Origin: Candidatus Heimdallarchaeum aukensis
Lineage (GTDB): Archaea; Asgardarchaeota; Heimdallarchaeia; Heimdallarchaeales; Heimdallarchaeaceae
DNA length: 64,000 nt
Direction: 5' to 3'
Assembly (NCBI GenBank): GCA_021513695.1
Contig: CP084166.1
Span: 2,272,001-2,336,000, forward strand
Below the pieces are notes generated by a model. The model was not told where the DNA came from, did no database searches, and saw only the letters and a program-made list of their open reading frames with translations. Shown in pieces: positions 3,657-54,132 of this stretch (its first letter is position 1; each line of letters opens with the position of its first letter). A program made the position numbers and the translations under genes.

Positions 3657-4898
3657 ATGACTAAAAGTAATGAATATGTATTTTTTAAACTTGGACGGAA
3701 TAAGGAGTTGGCGGAAGTTGAAATTTCCACAATTCTTGAGAAAGTGGGAATAAATAGAAAAATTAGTTATTTTCAGTGGAAAGAATTTCTCTTTGTTAAA
3801 ATAGAAAAAAAAGAAGAACAGAAGGTTCTTCAAAAAATTAGAGAAACTGGAAGTATAGTAAAAGTTGGTAGTTGTTTTGCAAAATGTAATTCTGAGATTG
3901 AAGTTAAAAAAGTGATACCAGACAAAATTAATCAGATAATAGAAAAATTCTCAGGAAAAAAAGAAAAAATAAAATTTTCAATTAACCTTCAAATAGAGAA
4001 AGAAAAACAAAAATCTTTTTCTGAAATAGTGAAGAATGAGATACTAAAAATTGCAAAAGATAAAAGGGTAGAAGTGAAGATAATTCCAAAAAAAGGATAT
4101 TCACTAGAACTTAGCCCTTACCAGTATCACAAAGAAAATATGCCAAAAAGAGGTGTAGAATTAATTATTTTTGGTATAAAGTCAAAGTTGTATCTTGGAG
4201 AAACAAAATGGGTAACAAATCCATTCTTTGACATAAAACTTGATGAAGGACGGCCAGAACGATTATTTACACATGGGACATCAATAAAAATGGCTCGTTC
4301 ATTAATTAATCTCACAAATATCAAGAAAGGTTGTAAAATAGTAGATCCTTTTTCAGGAACAGGAACTCTATTGATTGTAGGATTGTTACAAGGTTATGAT
4401 GTTTTGGGTTTTGAAAAAGATCCGAGATGTGTTAGAGTTGCTAAAACAAATATACGTTGGGCAGTTGATAAATACAAACTTGAGCGAAGTTGGAAAATAT
4501 ACAAGAATGATGCCAGGGATATGCATAAAATAATTAGTGAAAAAGTTGATGCAGTTGTAACAGAACCATATTTAGGGCCATTTCTAAAAACTCTTCCTGA
4601 TTTAGAAGAAGGAAAAAAAATAATCCATGAACTTGAAAAGTTATATGCTAAAGTTTTATATTCGTGTAGTCAAATCTTGAAAGATGATTCTAGAGTAGTC
4701 ATAATCTTTCCTTTTTATGAATATCCAGACAAAACTAAACTTTCAATTAATTTAGAACGTGTAATAAATGGTTTATCGTTAGAACTAGTAGAAAAGACTC
4801 TTCACTTTAATGTTAGTTTTCCTATCAGCATCGGAAGAGAACATAATATTATCTCAAGACAAATTGTTATACTAAAGAAAAATAGTATGAAACAATAA
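3657..4898 (+). CDS. THUMP-domain RNA/tRNA methyltransferase (Trm11/Trm-G10-like class I SAM-dependent methyltransferase)
   Basis: An N-terminal THUMP-like region followed by a Rossmann fold carrying VDPFSGTGTLLIVG (motif I) and the later VVTEPYLGPF (motif IV-like). Confidence 0.55.
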   Translation: MTKSNEYVFFKLGRNKELAEVEISTILEKVGINRKISYFQWKEFLFVKIEKKEEQKVLQKIRETGSIVKVGSCFAKCNSEIEVKKVIPDKINQIIEKFSGKKEKIKFSINLQIEKEKQKSFSEIVKNEILKIAKDKRVEVKIIPKKGYSLELSPYQYHKENMPKRGVELIIFGIKSKLYLGETKWVTNPFFDIKLDEGRPERLFTHGTSIKMARSLINLTNIKKGCKIVDPFSGTGTLLIVGLLQGYDVLGFEKDPRCVRVAKTNIRWAVDKYKLERSWKIYKNDARDMHKIISEKVDAVVTEPYLGPFLKTLPDLEEGKKIIHELEKLYAKVLYSCSQILKDDSRVVIIFPFYEYPDKTKLSINLERVINGLSLELVEKTLHFNVSFPISIGREHNIISRQIVILKKNSMKQ

Positions 4899-5538: not shown

Positions 5539-6465
5539 ATGACAAAGAACAAAGAAAAAAACATAACATTATCTTTACGTCCGATAACTAATCATAAAAT
5601 TAGAATAGTTAGAATCATTACACAATTAGTAATATTTAGCTTATTAAACGGGTTAATATTTGGGCTAGCTAGAGTAAGTTTAATTTTACCTATTGAATAC
5701 CCTACAGGAGGACCATTTTCTACGGTATGGAGTGGTTTTGAAGCGTTACAGTATGGGCTAACAATCTTTACCTTCCCCTATCTTGTAATAGCTATCTTTG
5801 GATTATTTGGAGCTGTGGCTGGAAAAACAACTTGTGGATGGGCTTGCCCAATGGGATTATTCCAAGATTTATTTAGTTACATCCCAATAAAAAAGAAAAA
5901 AGTTTCTAAACCAACAGAAAAGTCACTAAGAAGTTTCGCCGTGTTCATTATTATATTCGCTTTAGTATTCTCTTTAGTCATAGGAATATCTTATAATAAA
6001 AACGGTTCTGCAGCAAAAGACGCTTATGGAATATGGGGAAATATTCCTTATAGTGTGTTAGATCCCGTAGCAACAATTTTTGCAACTCTGTTTTATTATC
6101 TAAAATGGGGAATCCAAGCAGAAACACTTGGAGCTGAAATGGGTGATTGGAAATTTTGGTTTATTGCAAGAATATTATTCTTAGCAATAATCTTAATCCT
6201 CATAACCTTATATCCAAGAGCTTATTGTAGATGGTTCTGCCCAACAGGATACATATTAGGCTTTTTCAATAACTTTAGTCTATTTGGTTTAAAAATAAAT
6301 AAGAATAGATGTCCAACTGGTTGTAATAAATGTGAAAAAGCTTGTCCGGTTCAAGTACCTATACTAGATTATGATAAGAACATAACACATCCCAATTGTA
6401 CAAATTGTGGAGAATGTATAGATGCTTGTCCTGAAGGAGCTCTAAAAATAGGTTTCAGATTCTGA
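5539..6465 (+). CDS. Membrane-bound polyferredoxin (NapH/MauN-like 4Fe-4S protein)
   Basis: Multiple TM helices with CGWACPMG and CRWFCPTG motifs, and a C-terminal 2x[4Fe-4S] ferredoxin region (CPTGCNKCEKACP ... CTNCGECIDACP). Confidence 0.65.
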   Translation: MTKNKEKNITLSLRPITNHKIRIVRIITQLVIFSLLNGLIFGLARVSLILPIEYPTGGPFSTVWSGFEALQYGLTIFTFPYLVIAIFGLFGAVAGKTTCGWACPMGLFQDLFSYIPIKKKKVSKPTEKSLRSFAVFIIIFALVFSLVIGISYNKNGSAAKDAYGIWGNIPYSVLDPVATIFATLFYYLKWGIQAETLGAEMGDWKFWFIARILFLAIILILITLYPRAYCRWFCPTGYILGFFNNFSLFGLKINKNRCPTGCNKCEKACPVQVPILDYDKNITHPNCTNCGECIDACPEGALKIGFRF

Positions 6466-6519
6466 TTATCCAAACTTATTTCATAGAAATTCTTTTTCTT
6501 TTCTCTTTTCTTTTTTGTA

Positions 6520-7773
6520 TTAACTTTGAATTTGTAAAGAATGATGGTATGCTTCTTTTTCTGTTTTTTGAAGAATAGAACTGTAACCTTTTTCTAAATA
6601 ATCCTGAATAATCGAAAGAACTGATTTTGATATGGGAAGTTTAACACTGTTATTAGTTTTCAGTATTTCTTCTATACTCACTTCAAGAGAGTCAAGATAA
6701 AGAGCAGCAGAATAAAGTTCCTTAATAAAGTTGTAATTCTTATGTATAATGAACCCTTTTAAATGAGACATTTTTAATAAAATCTCTGATAAAATTAAAT
6801 TAACCTTATTCGCTTGCTCTGGAATATATCGAATAGGAGAATAACCAAGTTTCATTTCATAATTATATCTAAAAGCTTTAACGCGCGGAAGAACCAATCC
6901 TAATCTTTTGAATGCTTTTCTGTCGAAATCCCCATATTTATCATTGTTTCCGTAAAGCTCTAAATATTTGGCTACCAAATGAGGATAATGTTTTCTAAGG
7001 GTATCAATAAATTCATCTTTATTTCTCCCTGGCTTAAGAGTAAGTCCCCAAGTGATAACATACTCTGCATTAGCTTTTTTTGCTTTGTGAAAAATATTTT
7101 CAATGTTTTCTTTTGTATCTCCAATAAAGGGTAAACATGGATTGAAATAAACCCCAGAATGTATTCCTTCTTTACGTAATTTAGAGATAGCTCGAAAACG
7201 ATCCTCTGAAGAACTAGCACGAGGTTCGAAAATCTTACGAACTGAATCATCCGCGAGAGTGATAGTGAAATTAACACTAGCATAAGTCTGTTCATTAATA
7301 GCTTTAAGCAAGTCAAGATCACGAAGAACGAGAGTGCTTTTTGTGAGAATGAAGACTGGTAATTCATAATCATGTATGACTTGAAGAAGTTTACGAGTAA
7401 GTTGAAGTTCTTTTTCTGCAGGTTGATAGACATCGCAAACTCCTCCACCTACAAAAATAACGAATTTAGAAGGAGAAGGCATCTGAATTCGCTCAACTGT
7501 AGTATCTAAATAGTTGAGTAATGAGTGGGATGAATTAGGAGAAAAAAATCCTCTTTTTTTGAGATATTTCTCCAAGAGCTCTGGAGCATTAACCTTAACT
7601 TTGATTCGATTAGCAAAATCTTCATGCATATAATAGGATTCAGCTTTACCGTCACAATATTTGCAATCGTGCCAACAACCCTGATAGGGATTAAGGTAAA
7701 CTTTAGCCCAAGAGAAAAAAGAAGGTGTTACTTCTTTAATTAACGATTTAGCACGAATACGTTCAATGATCAT
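6520..7773 (-). CDS. Radical SAM protein (SplB-like / COG1533 family)
   Basis: N-terminal CxxxCxxC radical-SAM cluster motif (GCWHDCKYCDG). 417 aa, normal host composition. Confidence 0.65.
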   Translation of the reverse strand: MIIERIRAKSLIKEVTPSFFSWAKVYLNPYQGCWHDCKYCDGKAESYYMHEDFANRIKVKVNAPELLEKYLKKRGFFSPNSSHSLLNYLDTTVERIQMPSPSKFVIFVGGGVCDVYQPAEKELQLTRKLLQVIHDYELPVFILTKSTLVLRDLDLLKAINEQTYASVNFTITLADDSVRKIFEPRASSSEDRFRAISKLRKEGIHSGVYFNPCLPFIGDTKENIENIFHKAKKANAEYVITWGLTLKPGRNKDEFIDTLRKHYPHLVAKYLELYGNNDKYGDFDRKAFKRLGLVLPRVKAFRYNYEMKLGYSPIRYIPEQANKVNLILSEILLKMSHLKGFIIHKNYNFIKELYSAALYLDSLEVSIEEILKTNNSVKLPISKSVLSIIQDYLEKGYSSILQKTEKEAYHHSLQIQS

Positions 7774-7876
7774 TGTTTTCCCAATTAATCAAATAGAGTT
7801 TTTTTTATTTATAAAGATAGTTAGGTTGCTAGATTATCACCTTTAGATAAAGAAAAAAAGACATAGAATTAAAATA

Positions 7877-8947
7877 TTAAAACGATAAGGAAAAAAAGTC
7901 ATTGTTATTAAGTTTCGAATGAAACAAATAGCTTTTCCATTCAAGTTTACACGAACAAGAAGGTAAGTCCTGAAGAATATTGGGATCTTGAGAAAGAGTG
8001 AAATCTTTTAGGGCTTGAACAATTGTAGAGTCACAAGAACCACAGTTATGAGCTCCTCTCTTTTTACCTCCTGCAACAGGGTCACAAATGATTCTTAAGT
8101 TGGGATAGAGAGTAGAAAGTTCTCGGCAGATATGTACAAGTGACCATAAGTAGGGGGGACGATAAAGATTCTTATCAAAAAGTGAAGAGAGATAAGTGTC
8201 GCGTTGTATATTTATTGCATTAATTGATACGGTGTCTACCCCTAAAGAAACAACCTGTCTAACACTGTTAAAAACGTCCAACATGGAGTCAAATTCTGAA
8301 ACAAAAGGTGGTTTGAAAAGAAGGTAAGCTTTAATTTTTGCCCCAAAGGAAAAAACACGTTTTGTAGCACGTTCGAAATCTTCCCAAAAGAAACCTTTGT
8401 TTATAGAATCACGAAGAATAGCATTATTCGCACTTTCTAATCCTATAGCAATCTCAACTTTAGAAATATCAAAGTGATCACGGAGAAGTGTTAGTTTTTT
8501 TTCTGTAACATATGAAGGTCGAGACTCTAGTACTAACTCTTTAATACTTGACGAATAAGGTTGAAGTTCATGAAGGATAGAAATTAGAACATGGTTTGGG
8601 ACTTCGAGAGAATCAAGAATGCTACCACTAGTAAATAGTTTTATAGAATAAGAAAGGGACGGATCAATTAAAGAGGATAATTTAGAAGAAAAATCAGAGA
8701 GCATCTCTGAAAAATCTGGTTTTTGAGGGTTATCATAAAGATAACCGCAAATTGAACAACCTCCACTACGAGAAAGAGCCCAAGAACAACCTCTTGTAGG
8801 AAGAATAAAAACAATAGCTTTTGCTGGGCCAGTACGAAGACGATGATCTTCAACCCATGCAACAAGACGACGTGAAGTAGAACGCTTGGAAAGGGCTGAT
8901 TGGCGGTAACTATGGATTATGGAACTAAAAGAAGGGTTTATTTTCAT
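7877..8947 (-). CDS. Elp3-related radical SAM enzyme, likely RaSEA, the archaeosine-formation partner of ArcS
   Basis: Elp3-like cluster motif with long spacing (RGCSWALSRSGGCSICGY). A 4-nt ATGA overlap with the upstream arcS start suggests translational coupling. Ser-rich atypical composition. Confidence 0.6.
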   Translation of the reverse strand: MKINPSFSSIIHSYRQSALSKRSTSRRLVAWVEDHRLRTGPAKAIVFILPTRGCSWALSRSGGCSICGYLYDNPQKPDFSEMLSDFSSKLSSLIDPSLSYSIKLFTSGSILDSLEVPNHVLISILHELQPYSSSIKELVLESRPSYVTEKKLTLLRDHFDISKVEIAIGLESANNAILRDSINKGFFWEDFERATKRVFSFGAKIKAYLLFKPPFVSEFDSMLDVFNSVRQVVSLGVDTVSINAINIQRDTYLSSLFDKNLYRPPYLWSLVHICRELSTLYPNLRIICDPVAGGKKRGAHNCGSCDSTIVQALKDFTLSQDPNILQDLPSCSCKLEWKSYLFHSKLNNNDFFSLSF

Positions 8948-10872
8948 TTTGTTTCACCTTTTTTGAGTTTGAGTTTTTTCTTTACTATAGCTAAAGAACC
9001 AGATGACATTTTATTCATGTCAACACCAGCAATAAGTGCACGAGCAGTGGCCAAAACACAACCTGAATTAACAATAAATATTTCATCAGATGGAAGAATA
9101 AATTCAGAAGCGTGATTACAACCAGGGGCGTAGATAGAACTACCTGTGATGGTCTCTGCAGCAAAATCTAAGTTGACGAGAGAGTAATCGAGAATCTCTT
9201 GAGCTGCTGCTGGCTGGAGAGAAAGAAAACCTGTACGGGAAAGATATGTGGCTATAAGTTTTTTTTCTCTGAATATCTGGATGTCTCTAGGATATTTACC
9301 ACGAGTGCGAATTGGAGAAGAAAAGAGAATATTACCTGAGCCAGGACCGTATTGGTAATCTGCCGTAGCAATGAGTTTGCGGAGAAAAGGAGATAGATTG
9401 TGAGATGAATTGGAGTCAGTAAGGTCCAAAGAAGAAAAAACTTCGCGTAGGGTTGAAGAAAGATTAGAAAGAGATGAAGAACTAGTTGGACGATCAGATA
9501 TGGAAGTATGATATACAGTCAAATTCAAAGAATTAGAAACACGTTCAACTATATCAGAGTAACCTTGACCATATGTGTGATTAATAAGAATAATGTTTTC
9601 TGGAAACTTAGAAAGAACATCAATGAGAAGAGACGAAGTGACAGCTATTTCTTCTTCTGACCAGAAACCTGAAACTGGTATATCATAAAAACGAGGAGGA
9701 TAAAGAGATTCGAGTTCACGAGGAACAACAGAAAGCGGAGAGGTAATTATTAACTCTGAAAGAAATGGTAAAAAGGATTTTCCTGCTTGACGGAGAGATT
9801 GAATAAAAAGTGAATGAGAGCGAGAAAGAGAATAAGGTTTTCTTGCAGAACAAGGAAAAAGAATTACAACTCGAGTTTGAGGAGATGGATTAAAGCGTTC
9901 TCGAACACGATGTCGGAAAAGTTCAACTTCAGGACGATTAAGCGATGAAGAGCTAGTACAAACTAAAGAAGTAGACTGTTGAGCTGGAAAGCGAGAAAGG
10001 AAGGTAGAGGAATAGTTACGGTCGAAGTAATTGAGAGTCGAAGAAAGAAGGGGTGAAGAATGAACATCGCGTTCTACTAAAGTACGAAGGTTATCAGACT
10101 CCAAAAAGAAACGGATTTGAGAAAGTTTGTTAGCCATGACTTGAAGATTGTGTCCTAGGATGTCGGGAGGAGAAGAGCGGCAGAAAGAACAATAACATTC
10201 TGGATGATTAGAAAGAGGATAAACAGAATCAGAAGTGAGGAAAAAACCTCGTTCTGAGAGATAGTAAGCAAGAGAATCGTCGAAAAAGTCTATACCTGAA
10301 TAGACAAGAAAAGAATAATAGGCGGGGGCAATTGGACCAGGAACATATAGAGCTATATCTGGAGAAAGTCGAGAGCGTAGAGAAACAAATAATTCAGAAA
10401 GTTTACGCTGATTGTTAAAGAGAGAAGAAAGACCAGTAAGAACAAAAAAAGAACAGTCAGTAGATAAAACATCTTCTAATAGAGGAGAATCGAAGAAAGT
10501 ATAAGGTAAAGTAAAAATTTGAGAATGAAGGTCTGGGAGAGATAGAAAAGAGGTAACATATTCAGAAAAAGATGATTCTGACAGAGTAGATGAAACAAAC
10601 GAAGGGTAAAATGGTTGAGATGAAAGTGTAAAAGAAGAAGAAAGAACTCGCTCGGAAAGGTGAGGTGGAAAAGACCATCGTAACTGGAAAGAAGAATCTA
10701 AGTCAGAAAAACGGGGAGGAAAAGAAGAATCAAAAAAACCTGAAAAGCCAAAATTAGAAGGTTTGTTACCAGAATTGAAAGAGAGAAGACCTGGTGCGAG
10801 GATATGAGAAGTACGAGTCTCAGCTAAAAGGCGAGAAAAACCAAAGGCAGAGAGAGGTTGAAAGAAACGCAA
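8944..10872 (-). CDS. arcS: Archaeosine synthase ArcS (TGT-like catalytic domain + ArcS-specific domain + PUA)
   Basis: TGT-type zinc site CxCxxC...H (HPECYCSFC). ArcS-specific PCxxxKPY motif (FPCSARKPY). TGT-like YVPGPIAP...GIDFFDD segment. C-terminal PUA-like region. Strongly Ser/Leu/Phe-rich. Confidence 0.7.
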   Translation of the reverse strand: MRFFQPLSAFGFSRLLAETRTSHILAPGLLSFNSGNKPSNFGFSGFFDSSFPPRFSDLDSSFQLRWSFPPHLSERVLSSSFTLSSQPFYPSFVSSTLSESSFSEYVTSFLSLPDLHSQIFTLPYTFFDSPLLEDVLSTDCSFFVLTGLSSLFNNQRKLSELFVSLRSRLSPDIALYVPGPIAPAYYSFLVYSGIDFFDDSLAYYLSERGFFLTSDSVYPLSNHPECYCSFCRSSPPDILGHNLQVMANKLSQIRFFLESDNLRTLVERDVHSSPLLSSTLNYFDRNYSSTFLSRFPAQQSTSLVCTSSSSLNRPEVELFRHRVRERFNPSPQTRVVILFPCSARKPYSLSRSHSLFIQSLRQAGKSFLPFLSELIITSPLSVVPRELESLYPPRFYDIPVSGFWSEEEIAVTSSLLIDVLSKFPENIILINHTYGQGYSDIVERVSNSLNLTVYHTSISDRPTSSSSLSNLSSTLREVFSSLDLTDSNSSHNLSPFLRKLIATADYQYGPGSGNILFSSPIRTRGKYPRDIQIFREKKLIATYLSRTGFLSLQPAAAQEILDYSLVNLDFAAETITGSSIYAPGCNHASEFILPSDEIFIVNSGCVLATARALIAGVDMNKMSSGSLAIVKKKLKLKKGETK

Positions 10873-11055
10873 AAATTACACCTAATAAAAGAAAATAAAA
10901 GAAGATTAAAAAGAATACGATTAGAAAGAAAAGAAAGACGGAACATTAGAAATAATTAAAACGATTTATATAAAATTTAAAATAAAAAAGGCTAATACTC
11001 TTGAGAAAAAATCAGTTGTATAATAAAAAAAGCAAAAGAAAAACTTTTCAAAAGT

Positions 11056-11096
11056 AACGAAAATTTTAAAACAGTTAAAAAAGTAGAAGTATCAGA
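11056..11096 (+). promoter_or_regulatory. Copy 1 of a 41-bp direct repeat (aacgaaaattttaaaacagttaaaaaagtagaagtatcaga) upstream of tRNA-Lys(CTT). Contains a TATA-like tttaaaa.
   Basis: Exact repeat of 11275..11315. Downstream flanks remain similar for ~25 nt more. The position fits an archaeal tRNA promoter cassette. Confidence 0.6.
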
Positions 11097-11132
11097 AAAG
11101 CCTAAAACTTGCGAAAACGAGCGTTTTAGATG

Positions 11133-11209
11133 GGCCTCGTGGCTTAGTTAGGTAAAGCAACGGACTCTTAATCCGTCGATCAGGGGTTCAAATCCCCTCG
11201 AGGTCACCA
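11133..11209 (+). tRNA. tRNA-Lys(CTT), 77 nt with encoded CCA
   Basis: Manual fold: acceptor GGCCTCG/CGAGGTC; D stem GCTT/AAGC; anticodon stem ACGGA/TCCGT with loop CTCTTAA (anticodon CTT at 11167-11169); T arm AGGGG-TTCAAAT-CCCCT; discriminator A + CCA. Confidence 0.9.
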
Positions 11210-11217
11210 ATTTTTTA
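11210..11217 (+). terminator. Oligo-T tract (attttttag) directly after tRNA-Lys(CTT). Archaeal-type terminator.
   Basis: A T6 run immediately 3' of the tRNA. Confidence 0.4.
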
Positions 11218-11274
11218 GATTGTTCTTTTAAATAAGTTTGAATCCTCTACAATCCATTTTTGATTTTATTCTTA

Positions 11275-11315
11275 AACGAAAATTTTAAAACAGTTAAAAA
11301 AGTAGAAGTATCAGA
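11275..11315 (+). promoter_or_regulatory. Copy 2 of the 41-bp promoter-cassette direct repeat, upstream of tRNA-Lys(TTT)
   Basis: Identical to 11056..11096. Confidence 0.6.
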
Positions 11316-11347
11316 CATGCTTAAGACTTGAGAAAACAACATTCTCG

Positions 11348-11455
11348 GGGCTTGTAGCTCAGCTAGGTAGAGCAGCAGGCTTTTAAGCTTTCTGCGAGCC
11401 ATGCAAAAGCGCTGACACCTGTCGGCCATGGGTTCGAATCCCATCAAGCCCGCCA
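11348..11455 (+). tRNA. tRNA-Lys(TTT) with a ~31-nt intron in the anticodon loop (approx. 11386..11416). Encoded CCA.
   Basis: Acceptor GGGCTTG/CAAGCCC; D stem GCTC/GAGC; anticodon stem GCAGG...CCTGT interrupted after position 37; anticodon TTT at 11382-11384; T arm ATGGG-TTCGAAT-CCCAT; discriminator G + CCA. Confidence 0.85.
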
Positions 11456-11556
11456 AACTCTTTTTACCTTGTTTGAAAAGAAATCAAGAAGAGATACTAT
11501 AAAGTCAAAAATTTTTTTCAACATATTTTAATAATTTATTATTTTCTATATCTTGC

Positions 11557-12606
11557 ATGAAAACTACTCATGAAATTATATACTCCTCTTCTAGCTCTCT
11601 TCCTTCTATTCTTTCAAGTAGTGTTAATATTGTTGTCACTTCTCCCCCTTATCCAATGATTGAGATGTGGGATGAGCTTTTTTTTAATCTTAATCCTGAA
11701 ATCAAAACTTCTTTAACCTCTTATCCATCTTTAGCTTTTGAGCTTATGCATTTAGAGCTTGACAAAACTTGGAATGAAATTGATCGTCTTCTCAAACCTG
11801 GTTCGATTGTTTGCATAAACATTGGTGATGCAACGCGAAAGATTGATGGTAACTTTGCTCTTTATTCTAATAGTTCTCGAATAATCAGAAAATTTCTTGA
11901 ATTGGGCTATTTTTGTTTACCTTCTATTCTGTGGCGCAAACAAACTAACTCTCCCACCAAATTTATGGGGTCAGGCATGCTTCCTCCCGGTGCCTATGTA
12001 ACTTTAGAACATGAGCACATCTTGCTTTTCCGTAAAGGTTCTAAGCGAGAGTTTAATTCTTCCGAATCTAAATTGAATCGTCGTCGTAGCGCTTATTTTT
12101 GGGAAGAACGTAACCTTTGGTTTTCTGATATTTGGGAGTTTAAAGGCGTAAGTCAAAAACTAAATTCTGAAGTTTTGCGCTCTCGTAGTGCTGCATATCC
12201 TTTTGAGTTAGCTTTTCGCCTTATTAACATGTTTTCAGTTCAAGGTGATACAGTTCTTGATCCTTTTTTAGGTACGGGAACAACTACTCTAGCAGCTATT
12301 ACTTCATGTCGTAACAGTATTGGTGTAGAAATTGATAAAAATTTCAAGGCTATTATTCTCGAAAGCATAAGAAAGGTAAAAGATTTTGCAAATGGTTATA
12401 TTGATAATCGTTTGCAGGCACATCTGGCTTTTGTTAAACAAAAAGAAGAAACACATTCCTTTAAGCATCGTAACTCTATTTATGGTTTTCCTGTTATGAC
12501 TGCACAAGAAACTGATCTTTACTTTCCTAAAATTAAAAATGTTAAAATAAAAGATGAATCGCTTTTCGAAATTATTTATAAAAATAAAGAAAAGATTTAT
12601 TCGTAA
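11557..12606 (+). CDS. DNA methyltransferase, beta-class amino-methyltransferase (N4-cytosine or N6-adenine); no cognate restriction enzyme nearby
   Basis: Motif IV SPPY (VVTSPPYP) precedes motif I (DPFLGTGTT). Atypical codon usage (TCT/CTT/CGT-rich). Confidence 0.8.
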   Translation: MKTTHEIIYSSSSSLPSILSSSVNIVVTSPPYPMIEMWDELFFNLNPEIKTSLTSYPSLAFELMHLELDKTWNEIDRLLKPGSIVCINIGDATRKIDGNFALYSNSSRIIRKFLELGYFCLPSILWRKQTNSPTKFMGSGMLPPGAYVTLEHEHILLFRKGSKREFNSSESKLNRRRSAYFWEERNLWFSDIWEFKGVSQKLNSEVLRSRSAAYPFELAFRLINMFSVQGDTVLDPFLGTGTTTLAAITSCRNSIGVEIDKNFKAIILESIRKVKDFANGYIDNRLQAHLAFVKQKEETHSFKHRNSIYGFPVMTAQETDLYFPKIKNVKIKDESLFEIIYKNKEKIYS

Positions 12607-13376
12607 AAATCATCTCTTGTTCCAAACTCTCTTTCTATTGCAGCGATTAGTGTTTCTATATTATGCATAGTTGTCGCGCTTATTGGAAACAGTTCACCTG
12701 TGTTTCTAAATTGTTCTATAGTTTGTATTATGTTCAATCCTAGTTGTTTTGATAATGATATTGTTTGTCCTCTTTCTATTTCTATTCCTATTGTTTCTGG
12801 TTCTTCTATCCATCTTTCTAATCTTTCTTTGTGATCTTTTTTTATTAAATCTGCTTTTGAAATTACGGGTATTTGAGGGAGTTCTAATTGGAATTCTACT
12901 GATAGGCTTAGTAATAATATGCTTGCTAAACCTTCAGGTTTTAGTACTAATGATGGATCTATTAGGAACACCGATACAGGTTCTCTGTTTTCTTTTAACA
13001 TATTAGCGATAAACTTTCCACTGCTTCTATATGCAAATAATTCTATTTGTCCTGGTGTGTCTACGATTAAATATTGAGGGTCAACGTACTCCACTTCTGA
13101 CATCAAATCATGTATTTTAGTTGCTATTAGGTCCATACTGGCTATCATCGCCCCATTTGGACCTAGGTTGTATTCGTTTACTATTTCATTTATGTCTACT
13201 ATATCTCTTACATCTATCGCAGGAGCGTAAGGTATTGTTCTTACACCCGCATCTAAGTTAAGTATACCTACATCTAACTTCTTTTCCGAGAACCAATCAA
13301 ATAATGTCCTTGTCAGAAAAGTTTTTCCTGCTCCCGCAGTTCCAAGTAGGTAAATTATGTATTTTCTATCTGGCAC
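12597..13376 (-). CDS. GPN-loop GTPase (Npa3/XAB1 family)
   Basis: P-loop GTAGAGKTF, a signature GPN loop (EYNLGPNGAMIAS), and DTPGQIE. Confidence 0.85.
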   Translation of the reverse strand: MPDRKYIIYLLGTAGAGKTFLTRTLFDWFSEKKLDVGILNLDAGVRTIPYAPAIDVRDIVDINEIVNEYNLGPNGAMIASMDLIATKIHDLMSEVEYVDPQYLIVDTPGQIELFAYRSSGKFIANMLKENREPVSVFLIDPSLVLKPEGLASILLLSLSVEFQLELPQIPVISKADLIKKDHKERLERWIEEPETIGIEIERGQTISLSKQLGLNIIQTIEQFRNTGELFPISATTMHNIETLIAAIEREFGTRDDFYE

Positions 13377-13379
13377 TTT

Positions 13380-14165
13380 TTATTCTCCTATTTCTGTTAT
13401 CTTTATTTTGGGTTGATTCTCTTTTATTTTATCCATCAAAAACCTTTTTGCTTTTGCGACTATTTTTTCTCCTTCTTCTCCAGAATATGAAAAATGAATT
13501 GTTATTCCTTTTCTTTCTCCAAATTGAGGATGAGATTTAACATACAGTTTTTTAAATTTCTTCTTTGTTTGATTAATATAAGGTGCTATCTCACTTTCTC
13601 TACAGTTTTCTATCAGTATTTTACATTCTGTTATGCGGGTTTTTATTTTAGACGATAGGTAAGGGTGAATAGCCGTTGTGTATATAGATTTCACCTCCGT
13701 TGGGACACCAGGCAAACAGAATATCTCTGTTTTCTTATATTTTATTAAACATCCTGGCGCTGCTCCCGCACTGTTGTTTAGTATTTTTCCTCCTTCAGGT
13801 ATCATTGCCATCTTTCTTCTCTCTTCACTCATTTCTAATCCATACTTTTCATAATGCTCTTTTATTAACTCTAAGGCTTCTTTATTTTCTATAAGTCTCT
13901 TTCCTGTTACTCTTGATATAACTTCCATTTGTATATCATCATATGTTGGACCCAATCCACCTGTGACAATCAATATTTCTGGTTCTCTCTCTATGACTTC
14001 TTTAATGCACTCGCTTGCTTGTTCTAGATCATCCCTTACACTAGTTATTCTTCTTACTTCTATTCCTAATCTGGTTAGCTGTTCTCCAAGGTAAGTTGCG
14101 TTTGTATTAACAGTAATTCCCATTAGCAGTTCGTTTCCTAAACAAACAATCTCCGCTGTAACCAT
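13380..14165 (-). CDS. CinA-like molybdopterin-binding (MoCF_biosynth) domain protein
   Basis: N-terminal AEIVCLGNELLMG...LIVTGGLGPTYDDIQ pattern typical of CinA/MoaB-fold proteins. Confidence 0.6.
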   Translation of the reverse strand: MVTAEIVCLGNELLMGITVNTNATYLGEQLTRLGIEVRRITSVRDDLEQASECIKEVIEREPEILIVTGGLGPTYDDIQMEVISRVTGKRLIENKEALELIKEHYEKYGLEMSEERRKMAMIPEGGKILNNSAGAAPGCLIKYKKTEIFCLPGVPTEVKSIYTTAIHPYLSSKIKTRITECKILIENCRESEIAPYINQTKKKFKKLYVKSHPQFGERKGITIHFSYSGEEGEKIVAKAKRFLMDKIKENQPKIKITEIGE

Positions 14166-42537: not shown

Positions 42538-42880
42538 AGATGCTGAGCTGATAGCAACAGCTAAAGTGGGAAGCTAGGGCTCTCCTGTAACCGGAAACGC
42601 TCTATATGCCGGGCTGAAAACTGCTGCTGAGGGCTCGTCGAGGAAGATACGCTCTGTCTGGAAAGCGTCGAAGCATCGCCCCATGAGATTGTGCACACCC
42701 GAGGCGCCTTTGGAGGAAGGTGTTAGAAGGGTTGAGATCAAAAAGGGTCAGGCACGGAAGTGAGCAGCCCTAAGATCGATGCATGATGCCCATGGCAAGC
42801 GGTGTGGAGCTTAAGGGCAGTAAAACGGCTTCCAAAACGGGTTCGAACAGCAGGCTGCTAAGATTAGTTCAGCAGTCTTG
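42538..42880 (+). ncRNA. ffs: Signal recognition particle RNA (7S/SRP RNA). Boundaries approximate.
   Basis: A GC-rich (~55%) island in AT-rich DNA. Domain IV/helix 8 motif GGUCAGGcaCGGAAGugAGCAGCC. Alu-domain-like CCUGUAACCGGAAAC. Ends in an oligo-T tract at 42881-42889. Confidence 0.65.
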
Positions 42881-54057: not shown

Positions 54058-54132
54058 GGGGTAGTAGTCTAGTGGTATGACAACGCCTTCACGCGGCGTA
54101 GGTCGCAGGTTCAATTCCTGCCTACCCCACCA
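54058..54132 (+). tRNA. tRNA-Val(CAC), CCA encoded
   Basis: Acceptor GGGGTAG/CTACCCC; anticodon stem ACGCC/GGCGT with loop TTCACGC (anticodon CAC 54090-54092); T arm GCAGG-TTCAATT-CCTGC; discriminator A. Confidence 0.9.

Follow-up and report, generated by a model that had tools for sequence, protein, structure and literature searches.

The locus and its methyltransferase

The stretch of DNA considered here, 64,000 nucleotides (nt) of the chromosome of Candidatus Heimdallarchaeum aukensis (CP084166.1, positions 2,272,001 to 2,336,000; henceforth the window, in the coordinates of which all positions are given), carries on its plus strand, at 11557-12606, an open reading frame (ORF) that begins with ATG and specifies a methyltransferase of 349 amino acids (aa), the stop codon being counted in the coordinates. 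An initial annotation of the same DNA had placed this gene directly downstream of tRNA-Lys genes and next to a GPN GTPase gene on the opposite strand, and this is indeed how the locus is organized. Two tRNA-Lys genes precede the methyltransferase gene on the same strand: tRNA-Lys(CTT) at 11133-11209, identified by ARAGORN and scoring 71.8 bits with Rfam, and tRNA-Lys(TTT) at 11348-11452, or 11455 when the encoded CCA is included, which scores 60.7 bits with Rfam and is missed by ARAGORN. The second is interrupted after the anticodon loop by an intron of about 31 nt (approximately 11387-11417, with boundaries read from the sequence). A repeat search showed that upstream of each tRNA gene lies one copy of a 63-nt plus-strand repeat (11056-11118 and 11275-11337, 92% identical); the two copies are presumed to be duplicated tRNA promoters. 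The ATG of the methyltransferase comes about 100 nt 3' of the second tRNA gene, and 23-31 nt before it we read a putative archaeal TATA-like box, TTTTAATAA (11526-11534, plus strand), which is also found in Ca. H. endolithica and in a related metagenome contig, L011. Such a box would endow the methyltransferase with a promoter of its own, and a leaderless or short-leader mRNA would be implied. At its other end the gene shares its last 10 nt with the 3' end of the convergent gene for the GPN-loop GTPase (12597-13376, minus strand; PF03029, E=7.5e-56), the product of which is 100% identical to a protein named from Ca. H. aukensis.

The nature of the enzyme is readily recognized. Pfam profile PF01555 (N6_N4_Mtase) matches it over positions 1-220 of 221, with E=1.3e-37 and 130.4 bits for a cut-off of 26.7, and the PADLOC model of type II methyltransferases, PDLC03283 (MTase_II), matches the ORF over its full length (E=3.7e-146). 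Placed from the translation, the catalytic motif IV, SPPY (aa 29-32, 11641-11652, plus strand), lies N-terminal to motif I, DPFLGTGTT (aa 235-243, 12259-12285, plus strand), the S-adenosylmethionine-binding site. This is the circularly permuted order of the beta class; with the Pfam match and the conservation of SPPY, it bears out the initial view of a beta-class amino-methyltransferase. We use throughout two alignments, one of 21 and one of 32 family members. In both, S29 and Y32 of SPPY are invariant, and P30 and P31 are conserved in at least 90% of the sequences, while D235, P236, G239 and T242 of motif I are invariant as well.

Two further regions deserve attention. The central region (aa 126-215, 11932-12201, plus strand), which its similarity to the enzyme M.MthZI and its many invariant columns designate as a putative target-recognition and DNA-contact region, contains two family-invariant stretches, KFMGSGM (11959-11979, plus strand) and FWEERN (12097-12114, plus strand). 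An AlphaFold2 model of the methyltransferase, built from 32 homologues, has a mean predicted local distance difference test score (pLDDT) of 85.4 and a predicted template modelling score of 0.87. Within the central region, residues 130-149 and 197-202 fall below a pLDDT of 50, although their sequence is invariant, and we suggest on the basis of the model that they may form loops that become ordered on DNA. The C-terminal extension (aa 271-345, 12367-12591, plus strand) is specific to the family; it is predicted with a pLDDT of about 90 as a long helix followed by a beta-hairpin, and its residues R285, H289, Q317 and E318 are invariant.

When the model is compared by Foldseek with the structures of the PDB, the best match is TTHA0409 of Thermus thermophilus HB8 (E=3e-20), followed by the rotifer N4CMT, RsrI, CcrM, M.BceJIV and PvuII. 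TTHA0409, deposited under the name 'putative modification methylase' (PDB 2zie, 2zif and 2zig), is the closest solved structure, also at the level of sequence (E=3.7e-29). The Foldseek match, with a target TM-score of 0.81-0.84, covers the catalytic and cofactor-binding core. The alignment of the sequences stops near residue 280, TTHA0409 being devoid of the C-terminal extension of about 75 aa found in the window protein. M.PvuII (PDB 1boo) and N4CMT of the bdelloid rotifers (PDB 8s9m) share with our protein the fold class and the type of catalytic motif, but their identity to it is 18-23%, and both their recognition regions and their targets differ.

Kinship with M.MthZI and the predicted target

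A tblastn search of plasmids identified on plasmid pFZ1 of Methanothermobacter (NC_001337.1) a methyltransferase that shares 52.7% identity with the window protein across 98% of its length. In the pFZ1 record the methyltransferase gene is followed by a convergent, overlapping gene, named 'MjaI family restriction endonuclease'. The plasmid-encoded mthZIM gene is CTAG-specific according to Nolling and de Vos (1992), as their work is cited in PMC11033074 and PMC6471742, and this statement, together with the name of the neighbouring gene, is the reason why we take the pFZ1 enzyme as M.MthZI. M.MthZI and M.MjaI have in common with the window protein homology over the full length, the beta-class order of motifs, SPPY and the family-specific C-terminal extension, and copies of the same family carried by haloarchaeal megaplasmids are 47-50% identical to it. 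The settings differ, however: the M.MthZI gene is plasmid-borne while that of the window is chromosomal, and its 3' end is overlapped by a convergent gene for an MjaI-family endonuclease where the window has the GPN-loop GTPase gene. ORF 11557-12606 almost certainly encodes a DNA methyltransferase of the M.MthZI/M.MjaI type II family. Naming this family, and hence CTAG as the likely target, is what the comparison of sequences adds to the initial annotation.

In beta-class enzymes the target-recognition elements are located in the region between motifs that corresponds to aa 126-215. It is in this very region that identity to M.MthZI peaks, at 68%, to be compared with 24% in the C-terminal extension. 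In tables derived from REBASE, N4-methylcytosine (m4C) is the product given for M.MjaI and for the haloarchaeal CTAG enzymes (PMC11033074; PMC10609329), in agreement with a conserved SPPY in which Ser and Tyr are invariant. We can therefore predict, from homology to M.MthZI and M.MjaI and from the conserved SPPY, that the enzyme probably makes m4C at CTAG.

It might be argued that this member of the family recognizes a target other than CTAG, or produces N6-methyladenine (m6A) instead of m4C. M.MthZI, to which the identity quoted above refers, is the sole experimentally characterized member that was aligned, the C-terminal extension is poorly shared with it, and CTAG shows no striking depletion or clustering in the window. 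The similarity of the central region, with its long stretches invariant across the family, argues against a different target, and so does the fact that relatives 54-59% identical to the window protein adjoin MjaI-family endonucleases. As for m6A, adenine-specific beta-class enzymes usually carry Asp at the position of the Ser of SPPY, and this Ser is invariant here. A divergent specificity thus appears unlikely, while keeping some weight.

The distribution of the motif itself is of little help. The ratio of observed to expected CTAG sites in the window is 0.85 under a Markov model and 0.88 at zero order, a mild depletion, and the sites are Poisson-distributed, with no clustering seen, so that these statistics speak neither for nor against CTAG specificity. 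The most under-represented tetranucleotides of the window are GATC (observed/expected 0.66) and GTAC (0.70). Motif avoidance was considered as a clue to specificity and discarded, nothing in the values for CTAG, GATC and GTAC being decisive. We note in passing that a Heimdallarchaeota contig (L169) carries a GATC system of the DpnII type.

A methyltransferase without a linked restriction partner

The family is large and widely dispersed. More than 8000 homologues were scored at 50-63% identity, in methanogens, DPANN archaea, several Asgard groups and bacteria, as well as on 74 contigs of the viral collection; in cultured phage genomes only distant beta-class relatives were found. With R.MthZI as a query we searched 80 metagenomic loci and the 74 viral-collection loci, counting those whose downstream flank reached 700 bp or more (61 and 70, respectively). 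An MjaI-family endonuclease is present in 22 of the 61 metagenomic loci and in 18 of the 70 viral-collection loci, figures that are lower bounds, as endonucleases of other families would be missed. The endonuclease gene is nearly always convergent, and lies downstream by tens to a few hundred nt in the metagenomic loci and mostly by 0.5-1.8 kb in the viral-collection loci. The M.MthZI/M.MjaI methyltransferase family therefore belongs to restriction-modification systems.

This settles the nature of the substrate. One could imagine an RNA methyltransferase, acting on tRNA or rRNA and functionally tied to its neighbours, since two tRNA genes and the archaeosine-pathway genes for ArcS and RaSEA are close by, and a Trm14/Trm11-like methyltransferase is encoded 7 kb upstream. 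Yet family members are paired with restriction endonucleases, every strong match in sequence or structure is a DNA methyltransferase, and the adjacency to tRNA genes is not kept outside Heimdallarchaeum, P0003 and the copies of L. ossiferum and D. magnum being found in unrelated contexts. As the family is genuinely part of restriction-modification systems, we exclude an RNA substrate, an idea that would be far-fetched in the face of this evidence; that the enzyme acts on DNA had been supposed from the start, and the predicted fold agrees.

What of the partner here? No adjacent restriction endonuclease ORF had been noticed initially, and there is none: a tblastn search with R.MthZI found no MjaI-family endonuclease in the 64-kb window (best E=0.29), nor any match in the 17-kb locus of H. 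endolithica. The same search of the window served to look for the degraded endonuclease gene that a lost partner might have left, and revealed no such trace. Pfam and PADLOC scans of the flanking ORFs, and the Pfam annotation recorded for the H. endolithica locus, show no endonuclease-like ORF; the nearby ORFs, upstream and downstream, are housekeeping or unannotated. Furthermore, the downstream slot that the MjaI-type endonuclease uses in paired relatives is held by the GPN-loop GTPase gene. It is for these two reasons, no MjaI-family endonuclease in 64 kb and a slot otherwise filled, that we file the gene as an orphan member of its family rather than as a restriction-modification system, and within the limits of the window it is very likely to be one.

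The gene could still be the modification half of a working system whose endonuclease is unlinked, or belongs to a family that cannot be recognized by its sequence. An MjaI-type endonuclease accompanies approximately one-third of the family, type II endonucleases are known to be under-detected by homology (PMC10609329), and the search extended over 64 kb of the genome. However, wherever the family has a partner, this partner is adjacent, and here the flanks consist of tRNA genes and of a conserved GTPase gene; R.MthZI is without match in the window and in the 17-kb H. endolithica locus, and no nearby ORF of unknown function adjoins the methyltransferase. A working system seems to us quite improbable.

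The history of the locus

The gene is not an accident of a single genome. In Ca. H. endolithica (CP084167.1) the methyltransferase is 95% identical at the aa level, and the order tRNA-Lys, methyltransferase, GTPase is kept. The same order is found in metagenome contig L015, where the aa identity is 90% and a stretch of 2.9 kb is 93% identical at the nt level, and in L011 (85% aa identity), where an extra 1.2 kb separates the methyltransferase gene from the GTPase gene. Four lineages of the Heimdallarchaeum level thus share an intact ORF at this locus. In all six pairwise comparisons, the ratio of nonsynonymous to synonymous substitution rates (dN/dS) is 0.14-0.23 for the methyltransferase, versus 0.01-0.04 for the GTPase gene, which indicates purifying selection, weaker than that acting on the neighbour. 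These four lineages are closely related, a shallow sampling for the criterion of persistence used in the survey of PMC10609329.

More distant loci were reached by protein searches and contig look-ups, a query of the genome collection with the GTPase having returned only Ca. H. endolithica. Three more distant Heimdallarchaeaceae, with a GTPase 63-75% identical, keep the block of genes that extends from riboflavin kinase to the GTPase. No methyltransferase gene follows the GTPase gene in these three genomes; a cis-prenyltransferase or a TruD gene is found there instead. One of the three has ArcS and tRNA-Lys(TTT) next to this block, at its opposite end. It follows from this order of neighbours that the methyltransferase gene occupies a synteny breakpoint peculiar to the Heimdallarchaeum lineage, and the lack of the gene at this position in those relatives makes an older acquisition, beside the tRNA genes, plausible. 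Another Heimdallarchaeaceae genome has a 62%-identical copy in an unrelated context. In a neighbour-joining tree, computed without support values, this copy is sister to the Heimdallarchaeum clade, and the group they form is next to the clade that contains M.MthZI; solitary and endonuclease-linked members are interspersed throughout the tree.

The initial annotation had offered two readings: a remnant of an integrated element that had lost its restriction gene, or a domesticated orphan. The remnant would be a decaying passenger of a mobile element integrated at the tRNA-Lys genes, and not something that the host maintains. There are arguments for it. Mobile elements of Heimdallarchaeum often integrate beside tRNA genes, their preferred sites (PMC8813620), and the methyltransferase gene lies directly 3' of such genes. 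The family is highly mobile, as its dispersal among archaea, bacteria and viral-collection contigs attests, and the locus is both a synteny breakpoint and structurally unstable, as the inversion of tRNA-Lys(TTT) and the 1.07-kb insert in H. endolithica show, and likewise the 1.2-kb insert of L011. Against this stands the lack of the marks that integration leaves. Each tRNA-Lys 3' end occurs once in the window, up to 3 mismatches being allowed, so that the att-like repeats whose search had been proposed are not there; a general repeat search of the window found as the only notable repeat the 63-nt promoter duplication; and no integrase domain appears in the scanned flanking ORFs or in the recorded Pfam annotation of H. 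endolithica. Neither did R.MthZI reveal an endonuclease remnant in the window. With an ORF uninterrupted at this locus in four lineages, and the dN/dS values given above, the gene is better described as a domesticated or retained orphan; a recent, decaying insertion is not supported, and the remnant hypothesis appears improbable.

The insert of L011 might have been seen as the lost restriction partner. It carries, between the methyltransferase and GTPase genes, an ORF of 323 aa (P0121; L011, 1291-2262), also present in contig L013 and frameshifted in L010 and L012, which has no match in Pfam, NCBIfam, PADLOC or PDB. Its family comprises 2787 homologues, of about 52% identity and a uniform length of about 324 aa, in archaea and bacteria. 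Three contexts were sampled: near a DpnII system, next to a PycTM gene and next to MutS. We rejected it as a convincing endonuclease, since it belongs to a uniform and widespread family of which the three sampled contexts are not linked to methyltransferases, except for the vicinity of an unrelated DpnII system; its being there without a consistent methyltransferase linkage tells against the remnant hypothesis too.

Codon usage had also been called foreign. The methyltransferase gene does deviate in its synonymous codons, ranking third of the 58 genes compared, but ArcS comes first, the GPN GTPase second, the CinA-like gene fourth and RaSEA sixth. The bias is regional, shared with flanking core genes, and is therefore not evidence of foreign origin. 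The synonymous distance (dS) to Ca. H. endolithica is 0.09-0.13 for the ArcS, methyltransferase, GTPase and CinA-like genes, and 0.24-0.93 for the other genes compared on both sides. In the 5-kb stretch concerned (8944-14165), recent interspecies recombination or constraint on synonymous sites could account for the low values.

The composition of the genes upstream of the tRNA locus is curious in its own right. The RaSEA-like gene (7877-8947, minus strand) and the ArcS-like gene (8944-10872, minus strand) have pyrimidine-rich coding strands, with a purine fraction of 0.42 and 0.34, respectively, versus 0.55-0.65 in most genes, and a third-position purine content of 0.34 and 0.28, versus a window mean of 0.52 +/- 0.08. 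The purine/pyrimidine skew of the plus strand reaches its peak for the window (+0.42) at 10-11 kb. Ser makes up 17.4% of the ArcS protein, and Lys 2.8%; for Ser, the maximum in 144 relatives of ArcS is 12.6% and the median 7.0%. The nearest relative is 61% identical and the next 35%. This pyrimidine bias is mildly present in the methyltransferase gene. A symmetric switch of strand skew at the tRNA locus was contemplated as an explanation of codon usage and abandoned, the right side being no more skewed than other minus-strand runs; what is truly anomalous is thus limited to the left side, ArcS and RaSEA, and to the methyltransferase.

The tRNA-Lys locus itself differs between the sister species (window 10873-11556, versus 6188-8000 of the H. 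endolithica locus, L001). In the window both genes are on the plus strand, tRNA-Lys(CTT) without intron and tRNA-Lys(TTT) with a single canonical one. In H. endolithica, tRNA-Lys(CTT), which has an intron in its T-loop, is followed by the 1.07-kb insert, with an ORF of 106 aa that has no Pfam match, and then by a minus-strand tRNA-Lys(TTT) that has two introns and differs in its acceptor stem. T-loop introns are present in both tRNA-Lys genes of H. endolithica, and both genes are missed by ARAGORN and Rfam.

Possible functions

We may now understand the gene, with reasonable confidence, as coding for a solitary type II beta-class DNA N4-cytosine methyltransferase of the M.MthZI/M.MjaI family. 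As the family would have it, the enzyme would bind S-adenosylmethionine through motif I, recognize a short palindrome, most probably CTAG, through its conserved central region, flip the target cytosine into the SPPY pocket and methylate its exocyclic N4, on both strands. The gene would have entered the Heimdallarchaeum lineage next to the tRNA-Lys genes, at the synteny breakpoint, earlier than the split of the four sampled lineages, and has been kept since then under purifying selection, without a cognate endonuclease. Its more likely role, a putative one, would be the protection of the chromosome from CTAG-cutting endonucleases of the MjaI type, which travel with the family on mobile DNA; alternatively, its role might be epigenetic, along the lines suggested for the orphan CTAG methyltransferase that is conserved in Halobacteria.

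Several observations weigh against this reading. CTAG is deduced from an identity of approximately 53%, and methyltransferases that far apart sometimes differ in target; the statistics of CTAG sites neither support nor contradict it; and the constraint on the gene is weaker than that on its GTPase neighbour. Moreover, the window covers 64 kb of a genome of about 3 Mb, where an unlinked endonuclease is possible, and sequence is a poor guide to type II endonucleases of other families.

The comparison with Halobacteria is instructive. Their orphan CTAG m4C methyltransferase (HG1, or cHG U; HVO_0794, that is M.HvoDSI) is, like the window gene, an orphan, conserved in its lineage and presumed to make m4C at CTAG (PMC10609329; PMC6471742). 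HVO_0794 and the window protein are presumed to belong to one family. In Halobacteria, CTAG is strongly under-represented and clustered near orc/cdc6 genes (PMC10609329; PMC6471742), unlike what is seen in the window, and the conservation of our orphan has been demonstrated for four closely related lineages, in contrast with the persistent orphan of Halobacteria. It is conceivable, if rather doubtful, that the same restriction-derived CTAG m4C methyltransferase that turned into a persistent orphan in Halobacteria was fixed independently in Heimdallarchaeum, where it serves a host function, for example epigenetic marking of replication, repair or transcription, and not defence. Were this the case, Asgard archaea would have a chromosome-wide m4C mark.

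The methyltransferase is otherwise an ordinary orphan of a well-known, widely transferred family, and provides a clean case of a methyltransferase of the restriction-modification type that is kept although its endonuclease does not accompany it, a pattern already known from Halobacteria. Its importance comes from the organism. Heimdallarchaeum is an Asgard lineage available in cultured enrichment and close to eukaryotes, and a predicted specificity, m4C at CTAG, would be added to its almost unknown methylome; our literature search found no paper on this methyltransferase gene or on an Asgard methylome. Nanopore reads exist for Heimdallarchaeum genomes (PMC8813620).

Other features of the window

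Assignments made in the surroundings of the methyltransferase gene, in the window and at the H. endolithica locus taken together, comprise uracil phosphoribosyltransferase, PCMT, FEN1, a Trm14/Trm11-like methyltransferase, a ferredoxin, radical-SAM enzymes and ArcS, as well as a CinA-like protein, geranylgeranyl diphosphate (GGPP) synthase, translin, glycerate kinase, RibL, riboflavin kinase, a helix-turn-helix (HTH) regulator and a Toprim protein.

A second methyltransferase, of 413 aa, is encoded at 3657-4898 (plus strand). It has a UPF0020/RMKL-like domain (E=4.6e-16), with partial matches to TIGR01177 and Trm14; its motif I reads VDPFSGTGT, and where (D/N)PPY would be expected it has the unusual TEPY. 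There is also a weak match to PF01555, and one to the mad2 model of PADLOC. This protein is probably a tRNA guanine-N2 methyltransferase, and not a DNA enzyme. Finally, the window contains a third tRNA gene, tRNA-Val(CAC), at 54058-54132, and the archaeal signal recognition particle (SRP) RNA at 42554-42861 on the plus strand (Rfam RF01857, 114.8 bits).

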